From a virus (lineage: Duplodnaviria; Heunggongvirae; Uroviricota; Caudoviricetes), in the IMG/VR virus record IMGVR_UViG_3300031707_004017: a stretch of DNA of 64,000 nt, one strand, 5' to 3'. Position numbers and translations under genes: made by a program. Position 1 is the stretch's first letter. Every line of letters begins with the position of its first letter. The notes beneath the pieces were generated by a model. It worked only from the letters and a program-made list of their open reading frames with translations, ran no database searches and was not told the origin of the DNA. This document shows, one piece after another, positions 40,172 to 55,601 of the stretch.

Positions 40172-40582
40172 TTATCCTTTGTTTAAGATAGAATATTCGT
40201 GGTCTTCTATGACTCGCACATAGCCATGTTGTTCGACCATAGTAATGGAGCCTTCGTCCCACACATTTGTGATGCCTGTTGCTTTGAGCGACTCTGAGAC
40301 TCGGAGAGCGTGTTGTTCTTTACACTGTTCTCGATATCGTCGTTGTAATTCTTCGATTGTCAAGTCGCTCGTCGAGTTACAGGGTTGGCCAGGTAAGATT
40401 CCGAGGATCGATCGAGTATCGAGTTGTTTCGTGAGTGGTAATTGATTTTCAAAAATACCAGTAACCCTGCATTTCGGTTCATTTTTGTAATGCACACAAA
40501 CTACATGATCACCCTTTTTTACATGATCACTCTTTTTTAGCTTCATAACATATCTCCTAGATCGTGAACGTGTTCCAGACAT
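40172..40582 (-). CDS. hypothetical protein (136 aa)
   Basis: ORF track. Confidence 0.5.
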   Translation of the reverse strand: MSGTRSRSRRYVMKLKKSDHVKKGDHVVCVHYKNEPKCRVTGIFENQLPLTKQLDTRSILGILPGQPCNSTSDLTIEELQRRYREQCKEQHALRVSESLKATGITNVWDEGSITMVEQHGYVRVIEDHEYSILNKG

Positions 40583-40815
40583 TTTAGAGCGAAAGTTTCA
40601 GTTTCGTCTTTAGTGAGCGAATATTCAGTGCCTTTTTCGTCTTTCACTGACACGATGTCGACGTCTTCGGGTAAGTCAGGTTCCATTTGTAAGCCGAATT
40701 CCCTAGAACCGCGTTCAGCCGGGGTGTAATCAAATTCGATTTCGACATCGATTTCGTGTTCTTCGCCGTCGATATCACGGAGAATGTGACAATTTTTTAA
40801 GAATAATTTTGACAT
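40543..40815 (-). CDS. hypothetical protein (start at MSKLFLKN, SD AAGGAGAAAAC)
   Basis: Internal Met with strong SD inside ORF 40543..40872. Confidence 0.5.
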   Translation of the reverse strand: MSKLFLKNCHILRDIDGEEHEIDVEIEFDYTPAERGSREFGLQMEPDLPEDVDIVSVKDEKGTEYSLTKDETETFALKCLEHVHDLGDML

Positions 40816-40840
40816 GTTTTCTCCTTGATGACCGGTCCAG

Positions 40841-41062
40841 TTAAACTCCGTAGACGCTTTTGTTGTACACATGCGTGTCGCCGAAACTATCGATCGCGTT
40901 GAGATTCCAGACTTTCATTTCATTAAGGGTTTCTTCTTCGATGGGAGAGAGCACATTGTGTTTTTGGCAAGTCTCCAATGCGCGCTGAATAGCCATCAAT
41001 TTGCCGAGGGTCAAGTTCACTGCAAATGCGTTTTTACCTTTTTTCAACCTTGTTAATATCAT
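40841..41062 (-). CDS. hypothetical protein (start at MILTRLKK, SD AAGGAGGAT)
   Basis: Internal Met with strong SD inside ORF 40841..41122; preceded by conserved upstream element. Confidence 0.5.
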   Translation of the reverse strand: MILTRLKKGKNAFAVNLTLGKLMAIQRALETCQKHNVLSPIEEETLNEMKVWNLNAIDSFGDTHVYNKSVYGV

Positions 41063-41094
41063 ATCCTCCTTCTTAGTGATATAATCATGTAAAA

Positions 41095-41215
41095 TGTGCG
41101 TGCGGGCCCAAAATGTGGCCACAACATTTGGCGTAGTTTCTTGAAGTCATAGACTTCTCAGATTAGGGTAAAAAAAGGAAGGTATAAAACCATAGACCGA
41201 TGGGTTTTCTTTAAT
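41095..41215. promoter_or_regulatory. conserved upstream element copy 1 (GTGCG..CAAAATGTGGCC ... TAGACTTCTCAGATTAGG ... GGTATAAAACCAT)
   Basis: Shared blocks with 47797..47975 and 50974..51090; divergent intergenic region. Confidence 0.55.
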
Positions 41216-41346
41216 CTGAAGCCATTCTATAGGTTGACCTAAGCATTTTAATGTCTTTTAAAGTATTAGAAATCAACTACTTAGACGGTCATATTTTGGG
41301 ACGGTTTGTGCATACAGCATGATTATAATATTAACAAGGAGGACCC

Positions 41347-42192
41347 ATGGAGCAGAACCAGATCACATTAACAGTAACCGAATCCGAACGGCAACTTATT
41401 GAGGCCGAACGGAAACGCAAAGAAGCCGAAGCAGCTGAAATGGCTGCCCGGAAAAAAGTTAGTGATGCAAAGAAGATCGAAGCAATAGCCGTGCAAGCTC
41501 GCACCTTCACCGAGCAAAAAGGTCGCGAAAAAATCGCTTATCGGCAAATGTTCGACAATCTCAATTACGAAGCACCGAACTGCTACTCGCTGAAAGTCGA
41601 ACCAAAGACCCGTAAGTTCACCGCCGAGAATTATCGCTGCCAAGAGGATGGTGGTCCGGAAATCCTGGCATCACAGGATGTCGCTTACGAATCTTTCAAC
41701 ATCGTCCACATCGCACATCCCGAATTCGAAATCGTTGTTGAGTTCCACGATGGCGAATGGCGATATCGGATTCATTGCGGCCTCGGCTACCCGACTTCTG
41801 AGAAATTCTACAAGAAAGCTTCGACAGTCGCCGAGAAAATCCATGATCATTTCGAACAGAAGCGCCGGATATCTGACCTCCAAAAGCGGACGCTTTCTTT
41901 GCAAGATCAACTGGTCGAAGTCCTTAAAGCAAAATATCCGGATGCTGCGAAAATCGAAAAAGGTTCACATTGGGAAAGTGGCTATTCTTACCGTCGCGGT
42001 CGTCGATTTCCAGATGGCGGCCACGATGTGCAAGTCGTCATTGTAACTTTTCCCAATAGTTTCAAAGTCATTTACACGCCCGGCACAGATTCTAACGGCC
42101 AACTCAAGGCAAACTTCCGGTCGATGAATCTCGAAGCAATCGACGTAAACGCGATGATCGACTTTTGCAAGACGGCACCGAAAAAAGCATAA
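41347..42192 (+). CDS. hypothetical protein (281 aa)
   Basis: SD AGGAGGA; no family recognised. Confidence 0.65.
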   Translation: MEQNQITLTVTESERQLIEAERKRKEAEAAEMAARKKVSDAKKIEAIAVQARTFTEQKGREKIAYRQMFDNLNYEAPNCYSLKVEPKTRKFTAENYRCQEDGGPEILASQDVAYESFNIVHIAHPEFEIVVEFHDGEWRYRIHCGLGYPTSEKFYKKASTVAEKIHDHFEQKRRISDLQKRTLSLQDQLVEVLKAKYPDAAKIEKGSHWESGYSYRRGRRFPDGGHDVQVVIVTFPNSFKVIYTPGTDSNGQLKANFRSMNLEAIDVNAMIDFCKTAPKKA

Positions 42193-42223
42193 GCATTTTT
42201 TAACTCTCAAAAAGGAGCGAGTC

Positions 42224-42505
42224 ATGAGTAACTTACTGGCGAGGATCAAAGAAACTGCGGTCGAAGTCCTACCCGATTCGGACCGCTACAAAGTACGCTT
42301 CAAAGTCCGCTCACAGTCGTCGAACCAATTGTACTTGGTCTCTTACGACAATGCTCCCGGTGCGCAGTACTGGACGTGTTCGTGCCGCGGAAATATTCGT
42401 CACGGTCAGTGCAAGCATCTGAGTGCTTGCGGGCTCAAGGGTCGCGCTTACGGACGGCAAAGCCTTTCACAGTACATCAACGGAGGAGTTTTGTCACATG
42501 CGTAA
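42224..42505 (+). CDS. SWIM zinc-finger protein
   Basis: YWTCSCRGNIRHGQCKHLSACG = CxC..x..CxH SWIM signature. Confidence 0.6.
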   Translation: MSNLLARIKETAVEVLPDSDRYKVRFKVRSQSSNQLYLVSYDNAPGAQYWTCSCRGNIRHGQCKHLSACGLKGRAYGRQSLSQYINGGVLSHA

Positions 42506-42652
42506 AAACATTTGGACGTCACAATCGCAGTATGGAACTTATCCGGACGAAGCAAAACCCGTCAGTAAATCTACGGCCTACCGGTGGTTCAAAGAAGACA
42601 GGGTGAAAACGCGTCGGTCACAGTCGATGCAAAAAGTGGAGGTCGCAAATTC

Positions 42653-42904
42653 ATGAATGCGCGCCAGATCAAGAAACTCATGTTAAATGAACTGGACATT
42701 CCCAGACACAAGATCGAGTATGTAATCTCTCGTCCAGTCCTCGTCCAGGGTTTATGGGGTTGCTTGGCTGCATACGGCGTCGAACACGATCGAGAAAATC
42801 ATGAATTGCTGGTCGAAATCGTGCAAGACAAGTTAAATGAACCGGATATTGAAAGAGAGTGGAGTGAACTCGAATATGAAACGTTTGTAAAATGGGGGTC
42901 GTAA
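42653..42904 (+). CDS. hypothetical protein (start MNARQIKK, SD GGAGG)
   Basis: Internal Met with SD inside ORF 42584..42904. Confidence 0.45.
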   Translation: MNARQIKKLMLNELDIPRHKIEYVISRPVLVQGLWGCLAAYGVEHDRENHELLVEIVQDKLNEPDIEREWSELEYETFVKWGS

Positions 42905-44025
42905 AAATGCCTAAGAAAAGCTTTTGGACATCGCAATCGCGTTACGGCACTTACGAGGGCGAGAAGGGAAATCCTGGACAATGGTCATCATCATTCGGCT
43001 TCACCTTCGAAAACTCCAACTCGGTGAAATCGATCATGGGAATGACTGCTTATTCGATACTCGACCTCAAACCCTCAGCCAGCGACGATGCCGTGCGCAA
43101 TGCCTTTCGTAAACTAGCAAAACGCTATCATCCCGATAAGGGTGGCAATCGAAACAAGTTTGAAGAAATCACGACTGCTTACGAGACCATTAAAAACATG
43201 CGAGGCACGTCGAACCATACTCGCTCATCGAGGGCCCAAAATATGCACGGCCCGACAGTCCAATCGGAGCTTATTGTCCCACAACTGCTCACTGAGATCG
43301 AAGAGTCTGAATTAGCGACGTATTTATCCGATGATAATTTCGCATGCCAAGAGAAAAAAGACGGCAAGCATTTGACGTTACAGATACTCGACGGCCAATT
43401 TATCGTGCGAAATAAAAAAGGAATCGCATCGAGTTGTATGCCGGAATTTGAACCTGCAATACGGTCAGTCGGCCTTGATTTGCTCATCGATGGCGAACAA
43501 ATCGGTACCACATTTTGGGCGTGGGACGTGCTCGAATATGCAGGACAAGATCTTCGTAGTGAGTCGTATTATTCGAGGTATCTTAAATTGTCTGGAATAA
43601 ATTTCGGACCCGAGATTCAAGTGCTTAAGTTAGTGACAGGGACAGATGCAAAAACTCGATTCTACAACGAGCTAAAAAATGCGAACAAAGAAGGAATCGT
43701 ATTCAAGAAACTAGTGGGGATATTTAGTCCGGGAAAAGGTTTAGACCAATTGAAATTCAAATTTTATACAGAGTGTTCTGTGATAGTAGCTGCAGGTCGT
43801 CCGGGAAAAGCGAGCATCGGAATGGAATTGATTGGTCAAAACGGACGCGAATTCGTGGGATATTGTTCATGTAATCGTCACCCACCGATTGGAAGCGTCG
43901 TAGAAATCAAATATTTGTATGCATATCCGGGCGGTTGCCTTTATCAGTCTAGTTTCAAAGAACCGCGTGATGATGTCTCAGTCGATGAATGTACGATTTC
44001 GCAATTGAAATATAAACCGCTTTGA
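42892..44025 (+). CDS. DnaJ J-domain fused to minimal ATP-dependent ligase-type nucleotidyltransferase
   Basis: J domain YSILDLKPSASDDAVRNAFRKLAKRYHPDKGG (HPD); ligase motifs I KKDGKH, III LLIDGEQ, IIIa FWAWDVL, IV EGIVFKK, V LKFKF. Confidence 0.75.
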   Translation: MGVVKMPKKSFWTSQSRYGTYEGEKGNPGQWSSSFGFTFENSNSVKSIMGMTAYSILDLKPSASDDAVRNAFRKLAKRYHPDKGGNRNKFEEITTAYETIKNMRGTSNHTRSSRAQNMHGPTVQSELIVPQLLTEIEESELATYLSDDNFACQEKKDGKHLTLQILDGQFIVRNKKGIASSCMPEFEPAIRSVGLDLLIDGEQIGTTFWAWDVLEYAGQDLRSESYYSRYLKLSGINFGPEIQVLKLVTGTDAKTRFYNELKNANKEGIVFKKLVGIFSPGKGLDQLKFKFYTECSVIVAAGRPGKASIGMELIGQNGREFVGYCSCNRHPPIGSVVEIKYLYAYPGGCLYQSSFKEPRDDVSVDECTISQLKYKPL

Positions 44026-44056
44026 AAAGAGAATTCTATTATAGAGAAGGTGCAAC

Positions 44057-44272
44057 ATGACTATTGACGAAGCGATAAAGACCGCCAAACGAGAAGTCAA
44101 AGATTTGAATGCTCAAGCTTATTTGCATGGCATTCCCAAGTCGATAGAGTTGTTCGGATTAGAAGGTTTCAAAACTCAAATTTTATATACACTTAGTAAC
44201 ATGGCTTCGTGGCGAGGTGAAACTGCTCGCAAAGTCAAAACTACGATGCGAACTTGGATCAAATCGAATTAA
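44057..44272 (+). CDS. hypothetical protein (71 aa)
   Basis: ORF with SD-like GAGAAGGTG. Confidence 0.45.
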   Translation: MTIDEAIKTAKREVKDLNAQAYLHGIPKSIELFGLEGFKTQILYTLSNMASWRGETARKVKTTMRTWIKSN

Positions 44273-44726
44273 TCGGGAATTAGCTTTCCGTTCTCAGTCT
44301 CGTGGAAACATCCTTCATAATAAGCGTCTAGAAATCGACGCACTTTCCGAGCGACTTTATCGTAAAGCGAGTGTTGGTGTTCAGTCCGTAAAGCCGCAGG
44401 ATTTGAAGCATTGTTGTAAAGTCGAATTGCTTGAAAAAATTTCTTATCGCTCCGGCAAAGTAGATCGAACATAAGCCCTCCCCAAATGTGGCTGTTAATT
44501 CACACCGGAACTGGGTAAACAATTTTTAAGAGATTTCATACTTGGCACGACATTTGACACATATCACACAGTCGCAATAAACGATAAACTTGTGCTGGCA
44601 TGGCACCATAGCGCGGTAGGTGTCTGTTGAGCGAGTACTGCGGACTTCAGAGTTTCCCATGCTTCTTCACCACAATCACCATACACATACGGACATCCTT
44701 TGTTATCAATGTATTCAACTGCTTCT

Positions 44727-45098
44727 TTAATATTCATGGCAACCTCCTATCATAGATTTAATTTGTAGAGAATTCTTTAATGCTTGAATTTCTTGTTCGG
44801 GATTATATATTAATTTTGTTTTGTTACGTAACCATTTAATAATGAGATTATTGAGTTCTTTATCTTTTACAAAACCGTTTTTAGGAATTATGATAGTCGT
44901 GTAACCGACTTCATGTTTTTCAGCTCGACGCAATAGACAAATTAAATCAATCTCGTTAGCTTCACAAAGCTTGAACCATAAGTCGTCTTTTGGGCAACCG
45001 AATTCGTGTTTTAATTCGTGAATGAGACAACGAATAAATTCTTTGAGAAATTTTATCATAATGTTCTTTTGAAAAGAGTAAGAGTTAGAATATAGCAT
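44727..45098 (-). CDS. small HExxH-motif protein (putative Zn metallopeptidase-like)
   Basis: CLIHELKHEFG. Confidence 0.4.
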   Translation of the reverse strand: MLYSNSYSFQKNIMIKFLKEFIRCLIHELKHEFGCPKDDLWFKLCEANEIDLICLLRRAEKHEVGYTTIIIPKNGFVKDKELNNLIIKWLRNKTKLIYNPEQEIQALKNSLQIKSMIGGCHEY

Positions 45099-45157
45099 CT
45101 ACGAATAGGAGGCGTGGACATCTACATTCGCTCTTACTCTTAACTTTTGCACAGTAT

Positions 45158-45535
45158 TTACCGACCTGCCCGAAGTTTACACCAACAATCGTGACACTGT
45201 AACTTACCAGATACTATATCTACATGCTCAATAAAGCCAACAGGTTTGTGACAATCGGTGCAAATTTCGGAATGTGATTGTTGTACAAGCGCTCGAACTG
45301 TTTCCCTCAGTTGCTGCATTTCGTACACTATGGCACCATTGTGTGCCTCCCTTTCAGTGTGAGCGAAGTATTCCGGAAATACTTGGTTTAGTTCATAGTC
45401 TTCGCCAGCAAGGTGATGAATTATAGCCGCGCGGAACTGACCAATCTCATTCCTCTCTTTAGCGTTCTGATCTTTATCCTTTTCTTTACCAAGAAGACTC
45501 AATAATCGTTTTTGCAATTTTCTATTCTCCATCAC
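45158..45535 (-). CDS. hypothetical protein (125 aa)
   Basis: ORF track. Confidence 0.5.
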   Translation of the reverse strand: MMENRKLQKRLLSLLGKEKDKDQNAKERNEIGQFRAAIIHHLAGEDYELNQVFPEYFAHTEREAHNGAIVYEMQQLRETVRALVQQSHSEICTDCHKPVGFIEHVDIVSGKLQCHDCWCKLRAGR

Positions 45536-45579
45536 TTCTTCCTTTGGTGGTCACGATTTGATCAAATACCTTGTCAAGT

Positions 45580-46503
45580 TCATGAATTCATGTCAAAAAG
45601 TGACCGTTGTGCCGGTATTATATTATGTGACAAGTGCGTTTCGGGTTCCGATCCGTCATACTGACTATATGGATTGTTCGCAGAAATGCGAACGACTTTT
45701 CCAGTGGGATTTACTGTACATCCGCGTTGCAATGATGTCACTTTCGTCGATACGACTTTCGTCGGTGCTGCTGCCCAATCAACGTCGTCTTCTTTGGGTT
45801 TGATTTCGCCTTTCCGAATAAATTTGTTTTTTGCTAAATCGAATTCAAGCAGCTCGAATTCATAAATTGTACCGAAGCTCACTTGAGGGAAAAGTCCAAA
45901 ATCGCTTTTGATGTCTAGTGCTTTCTTAAGCAAGCTTTTCGTCGATGCGAAGAATATCATATTGTGGCAATAACCTATTGCTAACGGTCGATTGTCGTCG
46001 GTCCAAAAATAAATCTTCTTTATCGTCTTATTGTAAAGAACTATTGTCGCGCTACCATTCATATTTTTGATGGCATTCTTAATGCCCTGTCGTTGGATAT
46101 ACGAAAGGATAACTTCTGAGTCGACATCTTCGCTCGTATATTTATAATTAGCGATTTTCGGCATGCGGACTGTTCCGTTATGGATTATGATCCAATCTTT
46201 GGATTCAAATGGGTGAGCATTGATGTCTTTTGTTCGACTCTCGGGAGTGGTGTTAGACGAAGCTGCACGATCATGACCTAGCACAAATCGTTCATTAGCG
46301 AGTTCAGCGATGACTCGACCTCGCTTGACGAATTCTGTTGCCGTAATTGCTTCTTTTACGATACCGAGATTGGGTGCGTAATAACCTGTAGCATCGGTCC
46401 CACGAATCTGAGTCTCTATGAGACCTTTTTCGAAGATTTTAACGAGATCAAGATTGGTTTCTGTCTTAATGGTCGGTTTTATCCAACCAAATATTCCACA
46501 CAT
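45580..46503 (-). CDS. class II glutamine amidotransferase (Ntn hydrolase) domain protein, stand-alone
   Basis: MCGIFGW N-terminal Cys nucleophile, RGTDATGY, GHDRAASSNT...NAHPF, IIHNGTV: full GATase-2 motif set; no fused synthetase domain. Confidence 0.8.
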   Translation of the reverse strand: MCGIFGWIKPTIKTETNLDLVKIFEKGLIETQIRGTDATGYYAPNLGIVKEAITATEFVKRGRVIAELANERFVLGHDRAASSNTTPESRTKDINAHPFESKDWIIIHNGTVRMPKIANYKYTSEDVDSEVILSYIQRQGIKNAIKNMNGSATIVLYNKTIKKIYFWTDDNRPLAIGYCHNMIFFASTKSLLKKALDIKSDFGLFPQVSFGTIYEFELLEFDLAKNKFIRKGEIKPKEDDVDWAAAPTKVVSTKVTSLQRGCTVNPTGKVVRISANNPYSQYDGSEPETHLSHNIIPAQRSLFDMNS

Positions 46504-46560
46504 CCGCGCCTCCTATATATTTAATCAAACTATTTTGCATAGATGGACCATTCTCATTGC

Positions 46561-47229
46561 TTATTCTTCAGAGTCACAACGAACTGTTGCAGTCCCGTCC
46601 AACCGTAATTTCATCTGCTTCACAGGATTCGCTGCTCGAATTAGTTTGAGCATTTTCTTTTTATCTGAATTTTCCCAGACTTGTTTCCAATACTTAGGCA
46701 TTGACTTCTTCAACACGTTCATCATCTTTTCCGTTATCGGCTTACCGGTCAAAAACCATTTGGCAAAGCTGCACAAAATGTGACCGTCGTGGCCAGTAAA
46801 ACCGACATTGTTTCGAATCGTCGTCATTTCGGTCTGTTGTTCAGCAATTGTTTGGTGGTTGAAAATAAGCACAAGCGCTTTCGTAATCCACCGGGGATCA
46901 GTGCGGAGCTTTTTCTTAATGAACTCCTTGATTTCATCTTGTTTGATCGTGTGGAAGAGGTCCCAATATTCTTCCCAATCTTTCATGAAATTGAACGCGT
47001 CATCGATATTATCTTGCCATGATGACTGCTCTGATAAAGCGATAAAGTCAGCACCAACACCGTGCTTTTCTTGATATTTCGTCAACGGCATGTTGACCGT
47101 TATACGCGGTTGGTCGAAGACTAATTCCGCCCTTAAAAAGGCCGCATACTGTCTGAGTTCATCGATAGTTTTCATGATAACCAGGTTTCTATGCATTAAG
47201 TACAGATCTCGCGTTTGCATGCCGCTCAA
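46561..47229 (-). CDS. hypothetical protein (222 aa)
   Basis: ORF track. Confidence 0.55.
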   Translation of the reverse strand: MSGMQTRDLYLMHRNLVIMKTIDELRQYAAFLRAELVFDQPRITVNMPLTKYQEKHGVGADFIALSEQSSWQDNIDDAFNFMKDWEEYWDLFHTIKQDEIKEFIKKKLRTDPRWITKALVLIFNHQTIAEQQTEMTTIRNNVGFTGHDGHILCSFAKWFLTGKPITEKMMNVLKKSMPKYWKQVWENSDKKKMLKLIRAANPVKQMKLRLDGTATVRCDSEE

Positions 47230-47554
47230 TATATGACTGTTGACAATTCATTTCTTCGGCGACTTTTTTGTCGTATTCAATCTTGAGAGAAGCCAGTCGG
47301 TTTGGATGGTTCGCGATTTTCTGTGTGCATTCTTCGACTTCTCGCAGCGCTGAATATCTTGAGTCAGCGTAGACCGAGTAGCCGCCGGATGATTGTCCCC
47401 GACTGAGCGGGTCCGGAGGTTCTCTCACCAGCGTAAAATGTGCGCTGGAATATTTGATCCGAATCTCTGCTAGTTGCCGTTTAACAGCTTCTTTGTCCCA
47501 GCTGTAGATGCCGGTGAAGCTGAGTCCTTGTTCGTGTGCCTTTTGTTTTGTCAT
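47189..47554 (-). CDS. hypothetical protein (121 aa)
   Basis: ORF track. Confidence 0.5.
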   Translation of the reverse strand: MTKQKAHEQGLSFTGIYSWDKEAVKRQLAEIRIKYSSAHFTLVREPPDPLSRGQSSGGYSVYADSRYSALREVEECTQKIANHPNRLASLKIEYDKKVAEEMNCQQSYIERHANARSVLNA

Positions 47555-47754
47555 AAGTCACCACTTTCCAAGCAACCGCGCTCGTACAATGACATCGTCT
47601 CTTCAATTTGGGCCTGTTCGTCCAGATTTACATCGGCCAATCGCTGCTCCATCAAGTCCTTTGCCGTATCAAGGACATCGATCTGCTCTGGAGTATAGCA
47701 ATGGTCAAACGACGTTGAACCCTTCCTCGCAAAATCATCGGCTAAATGCATCAT
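47551..47754 (-). CDS. hypothetical protein (67 aa)
   Basis: SD AAGAAGGAGGATAAG before ATG; downstream of conserved element. Confidence 0.45.
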   Translation of the reverse strand: MMHLADDFARKGSTSFDHCYTPEQIDVLDTAKDLMEQRLADVNLDEQAQIEETMSLYERGCLESGDL

Positions 47755-47796
47755 TTTCTTATCCTCCTTCTTAATAATATAATCAAGTAATCTGCA

Positions 47797-47975
47797 TGTG
47801 CGAGCTCAAAATATGACCGTTTAAGTAGTTGATTTCTATAGACTTATAAAACTTACTATTCAAACACATAGAATATCGTCAAACGACAACGGACATATTT
47901 TGAGCAGTCAATGATTTCAGAGCCTTATGAGATTATCTCAGATTAGGTTTATGACAAGAGGTATAAAACCATTAC
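47797..47975. promoter_or_regulatory. conserved upstream element copy 2 (includes AAGTAGTTGATTTCTATAGACTTATA at 47823..47848)
   Basis: 26-nt block identical to 50999..51024; shares GGTATAAAACCAT and TCAGATTAGG with copy 1. Confidence 0.6.
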
Positions 47976-48029
47976 TAAAGATTTTAAACTAATCGGAGTG
48001 CTTTAGATACGTTTTAAATTCGATGGGGG

Positions 48030-48479
48030 TTAAACGGTCTTATTTTGAACTTGCAAGTCAGTACGCTCTTTACGTGCCTTACACCAGTCGCCGCTCACAA
48101 TTCGTTCGTAATGTCCGTTTTGGAAATGTTTTCCACCAATATAAACCCAAACTCGTTTTCCAGATTTCGTCGTCGCTTTCTTCCTTAAAAACAAATCGTT
48201 CGTATGATCGTATCTCAAATGATATCCTTCAAAATGGTCGAGAGTGCCAATGACATGACTGTAAGTAGTCTCATAAACTTCACCAACAACCCGGTCTTTA
48301 TTCGATTGAGAAAAACTGATATAAGGATAAGCCCAGTTAGCACTAAAAAGCTTGCCTCGAATTGAATCATAGCAGATGAATGTTGCGCCGCTTAAAAGAT
48401 TAGAACGACTGTCAGCTTTCCTAAGAGTACCATAAACGAAGATTAAGACTTTGTCATTTTTTTTCATCGAGGACCTCAT
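48030..48479 (-). CDS. gamma-glutamyl cyclotransferase-like (AIG2/GGCT fold) protein
   Basis: VLIFVYGTLRK N-terminal YGTL motif and downstream GEVYE catalytic-Glu context. Confidence 0.65.
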   Translation of the reverse strand: MRSSMKKNDKVLIFVYGTLRKADSRSNLLSGATFICYDSIRGKLFSANWAYPYISFSQSNKDRVVGEVYETTYSHVIGTLDHFEGYHLRYDHTNDLFLRKKATTKSGKRVWVYIGGKHFQNGHYERIVSGDWCKARKERTDLQVQNKTV

Positions 48480-48480
48480 A

Positions 48481-48511
48481 AAAAAGGGCTAAAATATATA
48501 GCCCCTTTTTG
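48481..48511. terminator. hairpin terminator between convergent-orientation minus genes
   Basis: aaaaAGGGCTaaaatatatAGCCCCttttt. Confidence 0.45.
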
Positions 48512-48529
48512 AACACCTTTTCTGGAGAA

Positions 48530-48883
48530 TTAAGCTGCCGCAACTTCTGTCTTGCGAGTCCGCTTTGCCTTGGAAATGTCGCCCATAACATTATTGATGG
48601 CCGCTGTAACAGCAGCCTGCACAGCTACATTGAGTTCTGCGCTTTTGGCGATTGCGGCATCGATGCGCTTGTAGAGCTTTTCCGGAACACGATTGATCTT
48701 TAGGCCTTTGACGGCGAGCTTGACTGCTTTCTTCGTCATCGACCGAGCGCGTTTGAGAGTGCGATTGAGTTTTGCGACTTTGATGACCAGCCGTTTTTTG
48801 GCTTTTTTCGCTTTGGAATGCCGCTTTTTCTTGCGATCGATTTTCAGAGATTTCGGCTTCCGTTCACGTTTTCCTGTTGCCAT
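48530..48883 (-). CDS. highly basic Lys/Arg-rich small protein (117 aa), possible nucleic-acid-binding
   Basis: KRERKPKSLKIDRKKKRHSKAKKAKKR...; contains the segment shared with 27867..28613. Confidence 0.5.
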   Translation of the reverse strand: MATGKRERKPKSLKIDRKKKRHSKAKKAKKRLVIKVAKLNRTLKRARSMTKKAVKLAVKGLKINRVPEKLYKRIDAAIAKSAELNVAVQAAVTAAINNVMGDISKAKRTRKTEVAAA

Positions 48884-48949
48884 TCATACACCTCCTTGAG
48901 TTATAGATTAAAGACAGATTTAAATAGCAGTGAAAGCTCTGTCGTGTGA

Positions 48950-49372
48950 TCAATCACCGCTGGATGCTTCGTCCTGTCGCTGATGAGCCTCTTCACGAGC
49001 GACATCGAGAATACTGAATTTCACCGATGAAGCGCCGATGGCCTTGAAAAACTTCGTCAATTGTTCTTGCACCTTTTTGGTCCCGTTCTTGCCGTGGCGA
49101 ACCGCATGGGACAGAAGGATGTTTGATTGCGCCTTGATGCCGATCCAATTCATACCGATCTTCGACAAGAACTTCGACTTTTCGACCAACTTGAGAGCGG
49201 CAATCGATGGTTCGCTGACATGTATGATGTTGGACGGCGCATGGCGCCACTCGGCCAATCCACGAATCGACAACGTCGAAACATCGACGCGTTTCGTGTC
49301 CGGGAAATTTACGGTACCGGTGAGGTTGAGACCCTCATCATCCGTATTGAATTGAAGCGTTACTTCCTGCAT
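48950..49372 (-). CDS. hypothetical protein (140 aa)
   Basis: ORF track. Confidence 0.5.
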   Translation of the reverse strand: MQEVTLQFNTDDEGLNLTGTVNFPDTKRVDVSTLSIRGLAEWRHAPSNIIHVSEPSIAALKLVEKSKFLSKIGMNWIGIKAQSNILLSHAVRHGKNGTKKVQEQLTKFFKAIGASSVKFSILDVAREEAHQRQDEASSGD

Positions 49373-49435
49373 GTTTGCCTCCTATTGGTTATGTATGTGT
49401 AATCAGTTAATCTGTGATTTTTGGTCCATTTTTTC

Positions 49436-50695
49436 TTAAGCTTCTACTTCTCTACGCATTTTTTTACGCACGCACGTTTCGAAGATTCTCGCGATATCTT
49501 CTGACATATTGGGATTCGACGCTCTCGAGTTGTAAAACACTGAATTGTTTAATGGATTCGATTGCACGCGTGAATCTTGGCTTGTAGTCGACACCAAATT
49601 CCTACGATGGATTTCGATGAAGCGCGCCCGGTATTGACTGCTTCGAGGAATTTTCAAAAATGGCCGCAATTCTTTACTGAAATAAATCGTGTTCGGTCTT
49701 AATCGGATATCCCGTGAAAGCTGTAATTGCCACGGTGTGTAATCGCCAAGGGGATAGATTCGAACTTCTGATACTGCAAACCGGCAGACTTTGAAAACTG
49801 TCTCCTGTTCGAATTCGTTCTCCCGATGAATTATCTTTAACTGGCAAATCTGTAATTGAATCCTCTCCGATCCCCGACGACTGCGACGGCTAGTTGCAGT
49901 CACATCCGATTGGATTAAATTGGGATTAGGATTAGTCCACAATTCTATACAATTAGGATTGTCCAATCGGTATGTTTTCGAAAATACGATTCGCTTGAAA
50001 TTCGCGATCTGAGTCGCATAATAGGATTGTTCCGGTCCTGATTCCGGTACGAGCATCGCATATTCGCGCTTCCTCGCGACTCGTTTCGCAGTAATGAGGT
50101 GATCGAACGCAGTCGGTTTTACTTGCCACATCTTAGCGATCTGGTATGCGATTGCCAGCACCGATTCTGCTAAGACGGGATCAGTGATCCACGACGGCGG
50201 CGTCCGATATTCGAAACCATGAGGTTGCATTCGCACATCGCCCGGTTTTCCATAAGATTGTCCGCTCCTTTTCGCACCGGGCACTTTTTTCAATCGTAAA
50301 CCTAGAAAATAATCGAGAGTCGTGATTAGTCGGCCTTGATGATTGTTACCAAAATTTGTTTGCCGACGGCGTCGACCATGATCATGGCTACTCCAAAAAG
50401 AATCCCAAGACATTCCAAAATGGATGTGCCCACCAGTAGCCTCGTGATATTGTTCACCGCCGCCGCATACAATCTTTATCTGGGGATGATGAGTTTTTAC
50501 ATGATGGAAAAGGTGCCTGAGGTTTTCGACCACTTGAGTAGGCGTTCCCGGCGCTGGCCGCATCTCACCGACACGGTTACCGTGATCCGACCCAACTTCA
50601 CCATACCGACTCTGATAACTGATATTACATAAAATACTTCGATTTTCTGGACCGACCACCATAAATTCAGGATCACATCCCAATGTCAATGGCAT
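49436..50695 (-). CDS. glutamine synthetase-fold amidoligase (GCS2/Amidoligase_2-like)
   Basis: N-terminal strand TLGCDPEFMVV (metal-binding acidic pair), GEMRPAP, and TGGHIHFGMS (GS-like HxH motif). Confidence 0.6.
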   Translation of the reverse strand: MPLTLGCDPEFMVVGPENRSILCNISYQSRYGEVGSDHGNRVGEMRPAPGTPTQVVENLRHLFHHVKTHHPQIKIVCGGGEQYHEATGGHIHFGMSWDSFWSSHDHGRRRRQTNFGNNHQGRLITTLDYFLGLRLKKVPGAKRSGQSYGKPGDVRMQPHGFEYRTPPSWITDPVLAESVLAIAYQIAKMWQVKPTAFDHLITAKRVARKREYAMLVPESGPEQSYYATQIANFKRIVFSKTYRLDNPNCIELWTNPNPNLIQSDVTATSRRSRRGSERIQLQICQLKIIHRENEFEQETVFKVCRFAVSEVRIYPLGDYTPWQLQLSRDIRLRPNTIYFSKELRPFLKIPRSSQYRARFIEIHRRNLVSTTSQDSRVQSNPLNNSVFYNSRASNPNMSEDIARIFETCVRKKMRREVEA

Positions 50696-50762
50696 ATATC
50701 CTCCATGAGCGGTATAAGTGCCTATACAATAATCATGTCACTGATGAAAAACGAACCTAAAA

Positions 50763-50924
50763 TTCAATTGCCTTGTATTTACCGTGACCGGGATACTGCC
50801 TTTTTGCTTCTTGAATTGCTTCGGATTTCGTTCCTACTACCCAATAACCGACTGTAAAATCTCCCTGGTCCTTATCTGAAATACGAACGTTATAAGCCTT
50901 TTCTGTCTTCTTACGGTTCATTTT
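50763..50924 (-). CDS. small protein (54 aa, MNRKKTEKAYNVRISDKDQGDF...), below ORF-track cutoff
   Basis: Perfect SD AAGGAGGATAAAAAAATG; immediately downstream of conserved element copy 3. Confidence 0.45.
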
Positions 50925-50973
50925 TTTATCCTCCTTCTTACCTTCTTATTACTATAATCACTATTGTAGAGCA

Positions 50974-51090
50974 ATGTGCGCCCAAAATGTGGTCATCTAA
51001 GTAGTTGATTTCTATAGACTTATAGAGACCTATGATCGATTGTACCAACGTATCAGATTAATTCAGATAATGAATTTAGCCTAAGTTAAT
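50974..51090. promoter_or_regulatory. conserved upstream element copy 3 (GTGCGCCCAAAATGTGGTC...AAGTAGTTGATTTCTATAGACTTATA...TCAGATTAAT)
   Basis: See copies 1 and 2; inverted partial copy CATATTTTGAGCTCGCAC at ~51172. Confidence 0.6.
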
Positions 51091-51299
51091 GGTAATATAC
51101 CTTCTTAAAATTTACCTCTATCGCTATTTCAAAATTGACGTAGATAAAAGCGATGTCTCATTAATTGACTGCCATATTTTGAGCTCGCACGCACATTCTA
51201 CTTGATTATTATACTAACATGAAAATCTTTCTTAATGCATAGAACAATGGACCAAGATTCAAAGATAATGTGATTATAATCTTAACTTAGAGGTATCTA

Positions 51300-51497
51300 A
51301 TGCCTAAGCTGGTTGACAAAACTGTAAAATTAGAGTTAGTCGGGCTAGATGGAAACGCTTTCTCTCTTATGGGGGCATTTCAGAAAGAAGCTCACAAACA
51401 AGGATGGACAAAAACAGAAATTGATGTCGTCCTTGATGAATGCATGAAAAATGACTATGATCATTTGCTCTGTATCTTGAGTGATCATTGTGAATAA
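51300..51497 (+). CDS. hypothetical protein (65 aa)
   Basis: ORF track. Confidence 0.4.
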   Translation: MPKLVDKTVKLELVGLDGNAFSLMGAFQKEAHKQGWTKTEIDVVLDECMKNDYDHLLCILSDHCE

Positions 51498-51520
51498 CAA
51501 CTTCAACAAAGGGGCCTTTT

Positions 51521-52126
51521 ATGGCAAAAAAAGCAGCAACTGTCGTCGTTGATCTCGACATCAAACTGGCTTCTGGAAAATCCAAAGCAGCGAAACCCGA
51601 CCAACTTTTGATCGATGACACGAAACACCAAGCAATTGTCGACAAATGCATCGAGCTTGATCACGCAATCGAAAATCTCAAAGCTGAGCTCGGGACCCAC
51701 GAAAGCCAAATCATCCACATCGCAGCTTGCGGTCGTGAAAATGAATTCAACGCCGGTAATTTCGTTAAAACCGTCAATGTCGCTGGTTCCACCCATAAGC
51801 TTCAGATCCAGTTCAAAGATTCTTATTCGAAAATGGAATCTTCCATGGAAGAGCCGCTCAAGACCGTTTTTGGTTCCAATTATCCGGTCATGTTCCGGCA
51901 CAACGTCATCGATTCTCTCCGGGACGAAAAGAAAGCCGATCTCAAATCGATACTCGGCACTCGCTGGGCAGAATTCTTCGCGACTGAAGAGAATATCCAG
52001 CCGTCGAAAGATTTCCAGCAGACGTATTTCATGCTGCGGAAGAATTTGAAGCAGCAGCAGACAGATTCGATCCAGAAGATTTTGGACGCTTGTCAGGCAA
52101 AACCGTCAGTCAAGTATCCTAAATAA
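51521..52126 (+). CDS. hypothetical protein (201 aa)
   Basis: SD AAAGGGG; no family recognised. Confidence 0.6.
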   Translation: MAKKAATVVVDLDIKLASGKSKAAKPDQLLIDDTKHQAIVDKCIELDHAIENLKAELGTHESQIIHIAACGRENEFNAGNFVKTVNVAGSTHKLQIQFKDSYSKMESSMEEPLKTVFGSNYPVMFRHNVIDSLRDEKKADLKSILGTRWAEFFATEENIQPSKDFQQTYFMLRKNLKQQQTDSIQKILDACQAKPSVKYPK

Positions 52127-52185
52127 ATGCACCTGGCTTTCGGTTGAGAGCACAAACAGTTTATAAACGTAAACTAGGAGGCAAT

Positions 52186-52566
52186 ATGCCGAAGACTCTC
52201 GTGAAAAAAGATGACATCAAGAATGACCCAAAACTGGCAATTATCAAAGCTTTTCGACTGGCAAACAAACGAGCTGGTGAAGCTAAACAGGCGGGCGAAG
52301 AAGCACTGCCACAATATGAGCTCGCATGCGGCAAGCTCAAAGAGCTGGCTGAGCTGGCAGAAGCGAACGGCTTTCATATTTGGGTCAACACGGACGGTCG
52401 TACCGGCCACACCTATGAAAAAGATTACAAACCGACCGACGAGACCCTGAACGATTGGGAAGAGCACCAGCGAGAACTAGCATCGATGGAATCAACAATG
52501 CACGACATCTTATCAGATGCTCTGGCTCATCATGTGCTGACTACGCCACCAAACAGGAACAATTAA
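52186..52566 (+). CDS. hypothetical protein (start MPKTLVKK, SD AGGAGG)
   Basis: Internal Met with strong SD inside ORF 52144..52566. Confidence 0.55.
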   Translation: MPKTLVKKDDIKNDPKLAIIKAFRLANKRAGEAKQAGEEALPQYELACGKLKELAELAEANGFHIWVNTDGRTGHTYEKDYKPTDETLNDWEEHQRELASMESTMHDILSDALAHHVLTTPPNRNN

Positions 52567-52581
52567 AAATGCCGTCGAAAA

Positions 52582-52821
52582 GTGGTACAAATGACAGCTA
52601 AAGATTTACAATTAATACTTAGTCTTGTAAACGCAAATGGTGGTTCGACTTTTAAACGAGCATGGAAAAATATTTGCATTTACATCAAAAAAGTTCAAAA
52701 ACCTTCACGTTACAAACCAATTATACCATTATCATGTGTTGGATGTGTTGGTGGCGGGTCTCGTTGCTATACATGTGTTCGTAATGTAAAAGAAGATAGA
52801 TATTATAAACATGACGACTAA
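52582..52821 (+). CDS. small Cys-rich protein (79 aa)
   Basis: CVGCVGGGSRCYTCVRN. Confidence 0.4.
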   Translation: MVQMTAKDLQLILSLVNANGGSTFKRAWKNICIYIKKVQKPSRYKPIIPLSCVGCVGGGSRCYTCVRNVKEDRYYKHDD

Positions 52822-53428
52822 CCAGATACAATACTTTTATCCACCCAAACCGACTCGAATCTGGCCCGATTCACCGCTCGTCGTGAGCTTTGCCGACTCT
52901 TTAGACTGGATTGCTGAAATCAAACTCAACGGCTGGCGCATCTTGCTTTTCATACTCGCCGATTCGATTCAAATCTACAACAGCAATGGCTCCGTCATCG
53001 ACATCGACCACGAAATTTTTCGGCCACATTTTGAGCGCTTTCCTGCCAACACAGTCTTCGACGGCGAGCTCCTCGATAAACGGACGAAGACACTCAAAAA
53101 TGTCATGGTATTCTGGGACACGTGCTTTTATAACGGCCTCGATGTCCGTCGAAAACCACTCAAAGAACGCAAGCAGTATTTAAAGTTCCCTATTGCACCT
53201 TTAACATTTGTCCAAAAACCAACAGCCCAAATCTTTAAAAGTCAACAATTCAACGACGATTTCCTCAACCTATATAACCAAACTATCACTCGTAACGATC
53301 CCCTCGAAGAAGGCATCGTCATCAAAAATCTATCGTCAACTTACAAACACAATCCAAAACGAAGTATTGACATTCTAGACTGGTTCAAAATCAAAAAAAT
53401 CGACGACCATGCGCTTGTTAACCGGTAA
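52811..53428 (+). CDS. minimal ligase/nucleotidyltransferase-like protein with atypical motif I (KLNGWR), paralog of 42892..44025 C-terminal domain
   Basis: I EIKLNGWR (N in place of D), III VFDGELL, IIIa VMVFWDTCFY, IV EGIVIKN, V DWFKIKK; FWDTCFYNGLDVRRK aligns with FWAWDVLEYAGQDLRSE. Confidence 0.6.
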   Translation: MTTNQIQYFYPPKPTRIWPDSPLVVSFADSLDWIAEIKLNGWRILLFILADSIQIYNSNGSVIDIDHEIFRPHFERFPANTVFDGELLDKRTKTLKNVMVFWDTCFYNGLDVRRKPLKERKQYLKFPIAPLTFVQKPTAQIFKSQQFNDDFLNLYNQTITRNDPLEEGIVIKNLSSTYKHNPKRSIDILDWFKIKKIDDHALVNR

Positions 53429-53538
53429 AACTTCGATTATCAAAGAAAAATGGTAAATCTATGACTGCGAACATGATTATAATATAAATAAACGAAGGGA
53501 GGATTGCGGAAAAAGATATCATTAACGAGGAAACTATT

Positions 53539-53985
53539 ATGAACAAACACATAACAACAGATGTTTTAAATAAAATTAGCGAATTAGAAGCTAAAATAGA
53601 TGAGCTCGAATCTGCCAACGATAATATATCGCAACAGACTGCCATCTTATCTGAACTGCTCAAGATCATGATAGAGATTCCAAACGGCAAACAGATTTAT
53701 AACCGAGCCATTAACCGGTGCAAACTAAATTATCTCAAAAACAGTGTCTTACCCAGGAGAGAACAACAACTCTTAGAATTCGAACGAGAACAAATGCCCA
53801 ATCCACTTCGAAAATTCTTCGTAAAAAAAGAAGTCAAACTATTACGATCTGTAGCACGTGCAATTAAACATAGAGAATACTTTGAACACCGGGCCAAAGG
53901 CAAGATCAATACTCTACTAAATAACATTTTTTCAATGACTCTACGCCATTCAACACGATTAAAAGCTATAACAAACCAATCTTAA
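53539..53985 (+). CDS. hypothetical coiled-coil protein (148 aa)
   Basis: SD GAGGAAACTATTATG. Confidence 0.55.
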   Translation: MNKHITTDVLNKISELEAKIDELESANDNISQQTAILSELLKIMIEIPNGKQIYNRAINRCKLNYLKNSVLPRREQQLLEFEREQMPNPLRKFFVKKEVKLLRSVARAIKHREYFEHRAKGKINTLLNNIFSMTLRHSTRLKAITNQS

Positions 53986-54002
53986 TAGGAGGTTATAATC
54001 TA

Positions 54003-54758
54003 ATGCCTGAACTCAATGATGTCATCACCAAACCGACTGACGACACTCCAAAAGTCGTCGATGCAACTGTCGTAGAACCAAATGAGGCTCCAGAGTCGAC
54101 ACTCGCACCGGCAGAAACAGCATCGACTTCGCCAGCAGAAACACCTCTTCCCAAGAAAGAGAAGAAAGCGAAGAAATCCAAAGAGAAAGTCGAAAAATCC
54201 GAAGCCAATGTCGAGCAAAAACTTCGCCGGCCACCTTTGGAACAAGTTGTAACCGATTTCGAAAATTACTTGACGACACTCTCTATCGAAAACAACAAGA
54301 TCATCAAACTCGGCTACAAATGCGGCAAAATCATCTTCGGCCTTGCCAATCCCGAAGGCAAAGACTTCCGCGTCGTAGCTTACAAGGCGCGTAAGAAATC
54401 CAAATCAGTAGCCGGAAAATCTCGATGTATCTTCTACTTCGGCCTCTCCAAGGAAACCAGCAAAACTATCAAAGACCTCAAAGGCGTCAAAGTATCGAAA
54501 TTCGGAAAATGCTCAGTCCAATCCGACAAGCCCTTGGAGCTCATCCTGGACAAAGTCACCTTCACAGAAATCTTTAACCAGGACGTCGACAAAGTCTTAG
54601 CAACTCTCAAACAACTCGCCGATACAGCCATCGAACACAAAACGGAACAATACGCAGAAAAACAGGCCAAACTCAAAGAGAAAGAAGTGGCCAAGTCAAA
54701 AGAAAACAAAGAAAGTAAGGAGGACAAAAACAAAAAAGCTAAAAAGACTAAAGAGTAA
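54003..54758 (+). CDS. Lys-rich protein (251 aa) with KKEKKAKKSKEK / KEDKNKKAKKTKE tails
   Basis: SD AGGAGG; charged low-complexity termini. Confidence 0.6.
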   Translation: MPELNDVITKPTDDTPKVVDATVVEPNEAPESTLAPAETASTSPAETPLPKKEKKAKKSKEKVEKSEANVEQKLRRPPLEQVVTDFENYLTTLSIENNKIIKLGYKCGKIIFGLANPEGKDFRVVAYKARKKSKSVAGKSRCIFYFGLSKETSKTIKDLKGVKVSKFGKCSVQSDKPLELILDKVTFTEIFNQDVDKVLATLKQLADTAIEHKTEQYAEKQAKLKEKEVAKSKENKESKEDKNKKAKKTKE

Positions 54759-54906
54759 AAAGACTTAAGAGCGATGAATTAAAAAGACTTAAGAGTAGGA
54801 CGCCTTCGAGGCCTTGTAATTATACCTCATTTAAAACGGCGTTAAGGGATTTAGGGAAAACCTATCCGATTTAAAAATTTAGATTACATAATCTAAAAAG
54901 TTAATC

Positions 54907-54945
54907 GAAAAGCCGTAGTAACTGATCATTACTTAACGGCTTTTC
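54907..54945. terminator. imperfect hairpin terminator between convergent genes
   Basis: gAAAAGCCGtagtaactgatcattacttaaCGGCTTTTc. Confidence 0.35.
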
Positions 54946-54947
54946 TC

Positions 54948-55199
54948 TTATTCAGTCGGCTTTGTTATTGACTCTGAAACATGTTGCCCCACTTTCGCTC
55001 CCAACACTATCAACAACACCATCACGCTATTTGACGGGAAATCTACATAACCTGCATTATGCAACATACTAATCACATTCTGAGCTACATATATCCCTAA
55101 TATTACAACAACTGTAGTAATTGTTGCTACTCTGATTGTTGATATCCCGCCATCTTTTCCCTCGACCATTTCTTTCAATGCGTTTATCATATTTACCAC
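54948..55199 (-). CDS. small two-TM membrane protein (holin-like, speculative)
   Basis: Hydrophobic stretches VATITTVVVILGIYVAQNVI and SVMVLLIVLGAKVG; SD AAGGAGGTGG. Confidence 0.5.
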   Translation of the reverse strand: MVNMINALKEMVEGKDGGISTIRVATITTVVVILGIYVAQNVISMLHNAGYVDFPSNSVMVLLIVLGAKVGQHVSESITKPTE

Positions 55200-55229
55200 C
55201 TCCTTTAATTTAACCGTTTAATAAATGCA

Positions 55230-55330
55230 GTATTCAAAATGTGGCTGTCTTCATTCTATCAACCAAAATACATGCTTACGCGCGCGGCCGTTAAATCTCT
55301 TGTAATTAGACTCTATAGACTCTTTAAATG
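55230..55330. promoter_or_regulatory. partial fourth copy of upstream element (CAAAATGTGGCTG ... TAGACTCTATAGACTC)
   Basis: Motif blocks shared with copies 1-3; upstream of 54948..55199. Confidence 0.45.
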
Positions 55331-55601
55331 GCTTCGCTATTTCTCTATGTTTTCTATTCTTAACAAGCAATAGAGAACGCGCGCTCGCACGCGTTAAACT
55401 CATAAGTCATCTATTCTAAACGAAATTCATTCTTAAATCTTCTCAATATAAAATCCTTCTATTTACCTTTTACTTTATCTTCCTTAAACTCTCGACACCC
55501 TTCCTATATTCTCTTAACTTTTACCAACTTTTTATATACTAAATTATCAATGTCTACGTGTTTCAATATGATTATTATTAATGAGTGGTAAAGGAGTTTT
55601 T

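Follow-up and report, generated by a model that had tools for sequence, protein, structure and literature searches.

A probable class-specific phage promoter with a 20-bp upstream box, confined to a GC-rich gene module of a metagenomic phage

The subject of this work is a recurrent upstream element in a 64,000-nucleotide stretch of viral DNA (Caudoviricetes; IMG/VR record IMGVR_UViG_3300031707_004017), referred to below as the window, which belongs to a ~100-kb contig from a novel phage. The element combines a 20-bp box with a TGAY-extended −10-like half at an almost invariable distance from it; its full copies point toward adjoining genes, and within the window it is confined to one GC-rich gene module. 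We consider it highly probable that the element is a class-specific phage promoter. For the whole model, in which RNA polymerase at a TATAAT-like −10 element acts together with a phage factor at the box, our estimate is about 55%.

Class-specific phage promoters are handles for gene timing and host polymerase takeover, and to our knowledge almost every example described is from a small set of cultured model phages. In the present case the promoter grammar (20-bp box, fixed gap, TGAY-extended −10) was read from metagenomic DNA, and the lineage has no cultured member. This grammar defines the regulon of the module, provides a search pattern for relatives with a near-zero rate of false positives, and points to a candidate DNA-binding protein; if the factor were confirmed, it would add to the mechanisms known to substitute for the −35 contact.

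Architecture of the element in the window

The box, TAGACGGYCAYATTTTGAGN, is present in 15–16 copies in the window, every one of them within 39.9–57.7 kb; its consensus is T-A-G-A-C-G-G-C-C-A-C-A-T-T-T-T-G-A-G/C-G/C, with G7, T13 and G17 invariant or nearly so. The core of the box, CAYATTTTGRG, is the reverse complement of the block CAAAATGTGG(C/T)C quoted in the preliminary description of this DNA. Exact copies of the core number 11 and all fall in 39905–57700; when one mismatch is allowed, 21 copies are found against 7.0 ± 2.9 in shuffled sequence, and 0 of 100 shuffles reached 21. A position weight matrix (PWM) scan at ≥15 bits gave 16 matches in 39.8–57.8 kb (89 per 100 kb) and none either in the remaining 46 kb of the window or in the 10 kb of source contig that follow it, which bears out the earlier claim that the element is specific to this segment. 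The GC content of the segment (40–58 kb) is 42%, versus 35% in the remaining window and the next 10 kb.

There are five full units, three leftward and two rightward, with two divergent pairs (41.06–41.35 and 50.92–51.30 kb), and every full copy points toward the adjoining gene (Table 1). The element had been placed upstream of leftward genes; this holds for three units, but two further full copies, at 41282 and 51165, are oriented rightward. The parts follow in the order (TCTATAG)AAATCAACTACT, TAGACGGTCATATTTTGAGC, 18–19 nt of GC-rich sequence, TGATTATAWT, ~6 nt, the Shine–Dalgarno (SD) sequence AAGGAGG and ATG, and a unit spans ~85 bp, its upstream block being AT-rich/(TCTATAG)AAATCAAC. The supposed single element of 100–180 bp is in fact composite, consisting of this ~85-bp putative promoter and of a central spacer between divergent copies that is found in closer relatives only.

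The second half has the consensus CA-TGAY-TATWnT-AnTARGA. The last two bases of the spacer between box and TGAY are usually CA, and the gap between the TTTTGA core and TGAY is fixed at 20–21 bp. All window hexamers are TATAAT-like (TATAAT, TATATT, TATATC, TATAGT, TATTAT). A TTGACA-like −35 element 16–18 bp upstream is absent, the sequence there being GC-rich and non-conserved (CCCGCA, CTCGCA, ACGGTT and others), and a sigma-70 consensus scan called 0 of the 5 window units.

Ten window boxes stand without a TGAYTA partner, five of them within open reading frames (ORFs). Such solo boxes keep ACGGCCACATTTTGAG only, and full units add AT-rich/AAATCAA conservation over the ~25 nt upstream of the box. 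The two solo boxes noted earlier at 44.48 and 57.69 kb are present, the former with one A fewer (CAAATGTGGC), and further ones lie at 39897, 45610, 46790, 47243, 47886, 48031 and 53017. The copy at 55.23 kb, formerly listed with the other regions sharing the ordered blocks, retains the box, but its downstream half is degenerate and its SD is different (AAAGGAGGTGG); TCTATAGACT lies near this box, at 55312–55321.

Conservation in related loci

The window sequence is also present on an ENA metagenome contig (k141_2840474, 100,367 bp; 99.8% identity over 39.5–60.8 kb; samples with the contig are ERZ27247707 and SRR9617949) and on Logan contigs, and among 50,697 GenBank phage records there were no matches to window DNA or protein (megablast with 18 kb and 25 kb; tblastn with two proteins). 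A close variant contig (L121) differs by a single nucleotide polymorphism outside an 11-bp repeat array and is for this reason uninformative on selection. Using ligase homologs, we found about 25 related metagenomic loci (~300 kb; individual loci are given as L numbers), including one 416-kb megaphage contig. Their GC content ranges from 31 to 51% and their ligase identity from 35 to 64%, and the architecture of the element is kept. A few backbone genes are also common to the relatives, indicating that the lineage, and not the module alone, is related. The phages sharing the box probably infect different hosts.

A 20-bp weight matrix, itself refined on the sites, picked out 113 unique boxes in the window segment and the ~300 kb of relatives; their density in the relatives is 47.6 per 100 kb. 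In 56 of these 113, exactly 18 or 19 nt separate the 20-mer from a downstream TGAYTA, and in 55 of 58 full units a co-oriented, SD-led ORF comes 12–125 nt past the hexamer (median 24). The boxes are intergenic in 88 of 113 cases, while non-coding DNA makes up 19% of the sequence (P ~2e-41), so that the outcome named earlier as speaking against a promoter, copies equally frequent in coding DNA, did not occur.

Four control sets (~3.5 Mb) contained 14 low-scoring boxes, at 0–1.3 per 100 kb; the density was 0.09 per 100 kb for the unrelated viral loci (1.07 Mb) and 0.39 per 100 kb for the bacterial loci (6 boxes, 1.5 Mb). Boxes with a TGAYTA partner were absent from random IMG/VR loci, from IMG/VR loci with distant homologs and from GTDB bacterial loci; the five partnered control boxes all come from metagenome loci chosen through distant or partial ligase homologs (L154–L207), which may include real relatives. 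The GTDB itself offered only distant N-terminal ligase homologs, in Bacillota, and the low-scoring boxes there had no TGAYTA, so that they led to no host assignment. The promoter consensus gave two chance matches only in the GenBank phage collection. In IMG/VR, a strict pattern scan gave 0 matches and a loose one 120 chance matches, the exact 16-mer gave 13 single chance matches, none with a TGAYTA partner, and look-ups with single proteins found nothing.

Conservation stops ~5–7 nt past the hexamer and leader length varies beyond that point, a pattern expected of a promoter and not of a leader RNA. It is very unlikely that the box is itself a compact promoter starting transcription just past TTTTGA, with the TGAYTA block acting in the leader RNA as a signal that serves translation, processing or a binding protein. 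Such an arrangement would fit the solo boxes that lie directly after terminators, often with a hairpin within the next 15–30 nt, the few units in which the box is 42–52 nt from TGAYTA, and the constant nearness of TGAYTA to a ribosome-binding site. However, there is no conserved RNA structure (RNAalifold on 51 units from box to SD, 0 consensus pairs; Rfam over 38–60 kb at E up to 1, 0 matches; no tRNA), the distance from TGAYTA to SD ranges from ~2 to >100 nt, and TGAYTATAWT also occurs without an upstream box or abutted by other DNA elements, as set out in the next section.

In the window, the copies resemble each other more than they resemble orthologous copies elsewhere, and three carry AGAAATCAACTACTTA. 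The identity reported for 47823 and 50999 was confirmed, with a length of 27 rather than 26 nt (TAAGTAGTTGATTTCTATAGACTTATA, 47822–47848 and 50998–51024). In L124 a single promoter precedes homologs of the 73-aa, 54-aa (51-aa in L124) and ligase genes, which the window splits between units A1 and A4. Given these 27 identical bases and the differing gene order beside the promoters among relatives, the copies appear to have spread by duplication and recombination, and the higher GC content of the module in the window suggests that it was acquired from a higher-GC relative. The same variation in gene order (L124 versus the window), the 27-nt identity as a sign of recent exchange and an 11-bp iteron array at the segment edge could be taken to mean that the repeats are recombination or cassette boundaries, or replication or partition sites, instead of transcription signals. 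We find this extremely unlikely in view of the strict gene-ward orientation and the fixed distance to a −10-like element and SD; moreover, repeated promoters are known to give rise to recombination as a by-product (PeSL cassettes, PMC2839356), and this is no alternative to promoter function.

All blocks quoted earlier were recovered at the places given for them; of those in the spacer, GGTATAAAACCAT is exact at 41181 and 47960 and TCAGATTAGG at 41158 and 47938. In the 41-kb spacer, TCAGATTAGG (41158–41167) and TTTAATCTGA (41210–41219) form an imperfect inverted repeat around GGTATAAAACCAT (41181–41193). The spacers of L123, L124, L125, L131 and the window share TCAGAT(T)AGG, then GGYCTATGG/GGTATAAAACCAT, then CCTAATCTGA; the arms differ in sequence in L140 and L151, and farther relatives lack this spacer. 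The central inverted repeat folds no better than shuffled sequence, L151 excepted. By themselves, TCTATAGACT and TCAGATTAGG do not exceed the frequency expected by chance, and the significance of these short blocks lies in their order and in their conservation in related phages. We regard the spacer as a lineage-specific upstream region, possibly with paired protein sites. The 47.85–48.05 kb region, with the same blocks between two boxes, is a divergent region that lost its rightward gene.

Proposed readers of the two halves

The −10 half recurs across promoter-like classes, each of which has an upstream half of its own. Box-less TGAYTATAWT (TGATTATAAT) lies before genes at 51271, 53474 and 55569. 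In the low-GC part, TCAWTGATTTTTAAMT abuts the −10 element at 31938 and 35876 (class B; two copies against 0.05 expected). In class C, GGTAAATCTAYGA is followed after 9–10 nt by (ca)TGAYTATAAT (the class C element is also written GGTAAATCTATGA); it is kept at the same place in L130, L131, L136, L140 and L144, and its distance of 13–14 bp from the hexamer is the geometry of the T4 MotA box. That three classes share one −10-type element would be expected if one polymerase/sigma acts on the −10 with different upstream factors, as in T4, whose early and middle promoters have a common −10 reader and different upstream factors (PMC2988021).

In the model we propose, RNA polymerase, most likely the host sigma-A holoenzyme, would read the −10 half, and a phage-encoded protein would read the box in place of the −35 contact and recruit or license the polymerase. 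The spacing of ±1 bp over a non-conserved spacer in very divergent genomes suggests that one protein assembly touches both halves. A phage protein is the most economical reader of the box, because the box lies too far upstream to be contacted by sigma region 4, does not have the sequence of a bacterial promoter element and is conserved among phages with probably different hosts. One such switch would govern five or six operons of the amidoligase/GATase/GGACT/ligase-like module. The notion of a dedicated promoter put forward earlier is thus supported as far as sequence allows, by orientation, rigid distance to the hexamer, SD-led ORFs, intergenic position and conservation.

Transcription is predicted to start at ~41071 (−), 41336 (+), 47769 (−), 50944 (−) and 51219 (+). 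Numbered from these starts, the upstream block would span about −82 to −58, the box about −56 to −37 and the hexamer −12 to −7; the leader would be short (5 to ~35 nt) and carry a strong SD. In unit A5, the ATG of a 7-codon ORF (51219) falls on the predicted start. L123 (2990–3130) and L124 (4625–4755) have a conserved Cys-rich ORF of ~45 codons (MENDxFECPIGSC...) directly after TGATTATTCTAWT and without SD, and its mRNA may be leaderless or nearly so.

Several observations weigh against this model. The start site and promoter function were deduced from DNA sequence, and the host and about one-third of the genome lie outside the data seen. The final T of the hexamer occurs in 39 of 58 units (67%), T13 and A14 downstream being better conserved; it should be noted that these 58 units were selected by the TGAYTA pattern, which fixes the hexamer bases T5 and A6. 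In all 58 of these TGAYTA-selected units the TG lies two bases before the hexamer and not one, so they depart from the extended −10 form TGnTATAAT, in which TG is one base upstream. The centre of the box, at about −45, is beyond any contact of sigma region 4 or of the MotA type, and the MotA-like distance of 13–14 bp belongs to the class C element and not to the box. Furthermore, 55 of the 113 boxes have no −10 partner, 25 of 113 are inside ORFs, and the solo boxes at 47886 and 48031 face no gene; with about half of the boxes partnerless and 25 within ORFs, the box has a partly independent life.

It is unlikely that host polymerase alone uses TGAYTATAnT in a −35-independent manner and that the box, instead of being a recruitment site, serves as operator for a timing regulator (a repressor or roadblock, for instance) or as an UP-like enhancer. 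The box-less TGATTATAAT copies indicate that the −10 half may suffice, solo boxes are sometimes an inverted partner 24–73 bp upstream of a full unit (47823/47886 in the window, 3613/3685 in L125, 3665/3738 in L131), and extended −10-type phage promoters with no −35 requirement are known (PMC3950348). On the other hand, a box ending at about −37 misses the core promoter and is poorly placed for simple repression, its ±1 bp spacing across very divergent phages favours direct contact with polymerase, and the full units have extra upstream conservation that solo boxes do not.

Another reading, which we regard as quite unlikely, is a phage sigma factor or phage RNA polymerase that reads both halves without host sigma-A. 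The conserved bases beyond sigma-A contacts (CA before TGA; AnTARGA past the hexamer) and the lack of a −35 would suit such a reader, as would the presence of the motif in a 416-kb megaphage contig; phages of megaphage size often encode their own polymerases. The inspected part of the genome, ~74 kb of ~100–107 kb, leaves room for the gene. Nevertheless, the window hexamers include textbook sigma-A −10 elements (TATAAT, TATATT), the −10 half is common to three classes with different upstream parts, and the 24–25 bp between box and hexamer are too long for a −35/−10 pair of the sigma-70 family. No sigma or polymerase domain was found in the window, L126 or L125.

For the protein that would bind the box under the two-factor model, the 30 segment proteins showed no sigma, helix-turn-helix, polymerase or classical regulator domain (Pfam, PHROGs), and PDB searches with single sequences and with profiles of four conserved uncharacterized families found nothing. 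The HU/TF1-like gene of L123–L125 is absent from the window. Small ORFs had no Pfam or PHROG match, and no AsiA homolog was found, no AsiA-specific search having been made.

A 251-aa protein (54003–54758, +), present in 14 of 20 related loci and having its own box-independent, putative class C promoter, is a candidate DNA-binding factor for one promoter class, as a lead and not an identification. It comprises a disordered N-terminus, an alpha/beta core and a long K/E-rich C-terminal helix; in the structural model built from a 42-sequence alignment, the core has a predicted local distance difference test score (pLDDT) >90 and the N-terminus is predicted to be disordered. The modelled core appears weakly similar to DUF419/YjbR and to the MotA C-terminal double-wing fold, and YjbR-family proteins are reported to share the double-wing DNA-binding fold of MotA (PMC7641849). 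Two points weigh against this candidate too: Foldseek gave no match below E 0.26 for the protein, and no MotA-like N-terminal domain was found in it. At rather long odds, one may suppose that a MotA-like specificity factor is encoded within the module itself (the 251-aa protein, possibly with the co-transcribed 148-aa protein) and redirects host polymerase to the box promoters. This would be a second, independently evolved switch of the sigma-appropriation type outside the T4 group, and module, promoters and factor would be a self-contained regulon moved between phage backbones of ~100 kb up to the 416-kb megaphage, one that in the window would still be recognizable by its higher GC (42% versus 35%).

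The gene module and comparison with known systems

The window phage is a tailed phage and apparently virulent, and its large minus-strand genes at 1–31 kb include a baseplate-wedge-like protein and tail or decoration proteins. The GC-rich segment encodes a phiEco32-type COOH-NH2 ligase, a class-II glutamine amidotransferase (GATase), a gamma-glutamyl cyclotransferase-like (GGACT) protein, two ATP-dependent-ligase-like nucleotidyltransferases, one with a fused DnaJ domain, and many proteins with no known function. According to ORF clustering over 20 loci, the module core is two divergent operons around the promoter pair, one with the COOH-NH2 ligase, 140-aa, basic 117-aa and GGACT proteins, the other with the 65-aa, 201-aa, 140-aa, ligase-like nucleotidyltransferase, 148-aa and 251-aa proteins. 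The set may be a nucleic-acid or peptide modification system. Near the core (48030–54758 in the window, and related loci) lie the GATase and the DnaJ-ligase fusion, and in L125 also a radical SAM enzyme.

Table 1. Positions of full units, spacers, solo boxes and other promoter-like elements in the window
Feature	Coordinates	Strand	Components and surroundings
Unit A1	41063..41140	−	box 41106-41125; TGATTATATC 41078-41087; SD AAGAAGGAGGAT 41063-41074; faces 73-aa gene 40841-41062 and genes downstream
Unit A2	41262..41346	+	AGAAATCAAC block; box 41282-41301; TGATTATAAT 41320-41329; SD AAGGAGG; faces operon 41347-44272 (281-aa gene ... DnaJ/ligase-like)
Unit A3	47755..47848	−	TCTATAGAAATCAAC block; box 47804-47823; TGATTATATT 47776-47785; SD AAGAAGGAGGAT; faces operon 47754-44564, GATase included
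Unit A4	50922..51024	−	TCTATAGAAATCAAC block; box 50980-50999; TGATTATAGT 50951-50960; SD; faces 54-aa, COOH-NH2 ligase, 140-aa, 117-aa and GGACT genes
Unit A5	51140..51230	+	box 51165-51184; TGATTATTAT 51203-51212; faces rightward operon 51300-54758; second, box-less TGATTATAAT at 51271-51280 before 65-aa gene (51300)
Central spacer of 41-kb divergent pair	41141..41261		homologous spacers in L123, L124, L125, L131
Remnant of divergent region	47849..48050	+	boxes 47886-47905 and 48031-48050; TCAGATTAGG 47938-47947; GGTATAAAACCAT 47960-47972; CTAATCGGAG 47989-47998
Solo box CTAACAGCCACATTTTGGGA	39897-39916	+	15.0 bits
Solo box TTAACAGCCACATTTGGGGA	44479-44498	−	3' end overlaps SD of possible 67-aa ORF (44269-44472)
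Solo box	45591-45610	−	final codons of GATase gene; 56 nt before next start (ATG 45532-45530; GTG alternative 45535); possible internal promoter
Solo box	46771-46790	−	within ORF 46561-47229, same direction
Solo box	47224-47243	−	junction of genes 47189-47554 and 46561-47229; then TGTACTTAAT
Solo box	53017-53036	+	23.6 bits; within ligase-like nucleotidyltransferase gene 52811-53428, same direction
Box with degenerate −10 half (..TTAAATTAAAGGAGG)	55232-55251	−	42 nt before ATG of 80-aa membrane-like gene 54948-55190
Solo box GATACAGCCACATTTTGAGA	57689-57708	−	22.6 bits; gene-poor stretch
Class B promoter-like TCAWTGATTTTTAAMTTGACTATAWT	31938-31963, 35876-35901	+	same TGAYTATAWT as box class
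Class C	53452-53483	+	before 148-aa/251-aa gene pair
Class C	46518-46549	−	before GATase gene

Other repeats were noted in this DNA. About 75 nt of the basic 117-aa gene (48621–48694, −) recur at 28236–28312 (+) with 92% identity, this low-GC copy sitting inside gene 27867–28613, which suggests a shared domain or recent exchange. A direct repeat of ~70 nt (95–100% identity) lies at 59753–59820 and 63047–63119, 3.3 kb apart, among small minus-strand genes. The gene-poor stretches at both segment edges contain repeated GC-rich blocks (CTATAAAACAAA...GCGCGTGCTCGCG, and TCAAGWTCCTTTACGCGCGCGAT twice; 38591–38634, 38772–38815, 38613/38658, 39990, 55275–55290, 55380–55395, 57797/57848). At the right edge of the segment, 57956–58440 holds ~31–40 tandem copies of the 11-bp unit GCCAGATATT(A/G), one helical turn apart, with TGCYGATYAAYTTCGGCAGTARCGC flanks at 58003 and 58468 and a GC skew there of +0.28. 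Besides one indel near 39.8 kb, all differences but one between the window and the ENA variant fall in this array, a candidate origin, partition site or protein-binding array. Past the window, L126 1–9900 (= 64–74 kb) encodes NAPRTase, TnpB-like OrfB_IS605, cpYpsA and RlaP domain proteins and has no boxes.

Among other known promoter types, sigma-54 (−24/−12), Bacteroidetes −33/−7, sporulation sigmas E/G/K and SPO1 late CGTTAGA/GATATT were set aside by eye, as their spacing or sequence does not fit.

The class-specific consensus before one gene set is a trait shared with the SPO1 gp28 and gp33/34 cascades and with the promoters of phage polymerases (T7/SP6 type; AR9 non-virion polymerase). SPO1 classes have their own −10 sequences, and T7-type promoters are one contiguous block of ~20 bp (−17 to +6). 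The element described here differs in being bipartite and ~85 bp long, and none of these systems has anything like a 20-bp box with a TATAAT-like hexamer ~25 bp away; AR9 late promoters, for their part, are short AT-rich motifs (PMC5312081).

Near-identical promoters flanking small operons in a variable region, with differing gene order, are also the mark of the PeSL cassettes of T4-type phages (PMC2839356, PMC4122927), and some boxes in relatives, solo boxes only, sit directly after terminator hairpins, as there. In contrast, PeSL elements have a canonical sigma-70 −35/−10 and an obligatory stem-loop, and the five window units have neither. The extended −10 middle and late promoters of Thermus phage P23-45, in which gp39 displaces sigma region 4, resemble the element in combining a good −10 with an upstream TG and in having no −35 (PMC3950348); here, however, the TG is one base farther upstream and a long conserved box is added, and no gp39-like protein was identified.

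The likeness to T4 middle promoters lies in a host-type −10 with a phage-specific box replacing the −35 at a rigid distance, in the many copies per temporal class, and in the double-wing-like fold predicted for the 251-aa module protein, as in MotA. The T4 MotA box, (a/t)(a/t)(a/t)TGCTTtA, is 12 ± 1 bp from the −10 (PMC2988021), whereas the box here, TAGACGGYCAYATTTTGA, is twice as long and 24–25 bp from the hexamer, with its centre at about −45 as against −30 in T4; no MotA N-terminal domain was found, and the phages are unrelated to T4. The element is in all probability a dedicated phage promoter, known in kind and new in its form.

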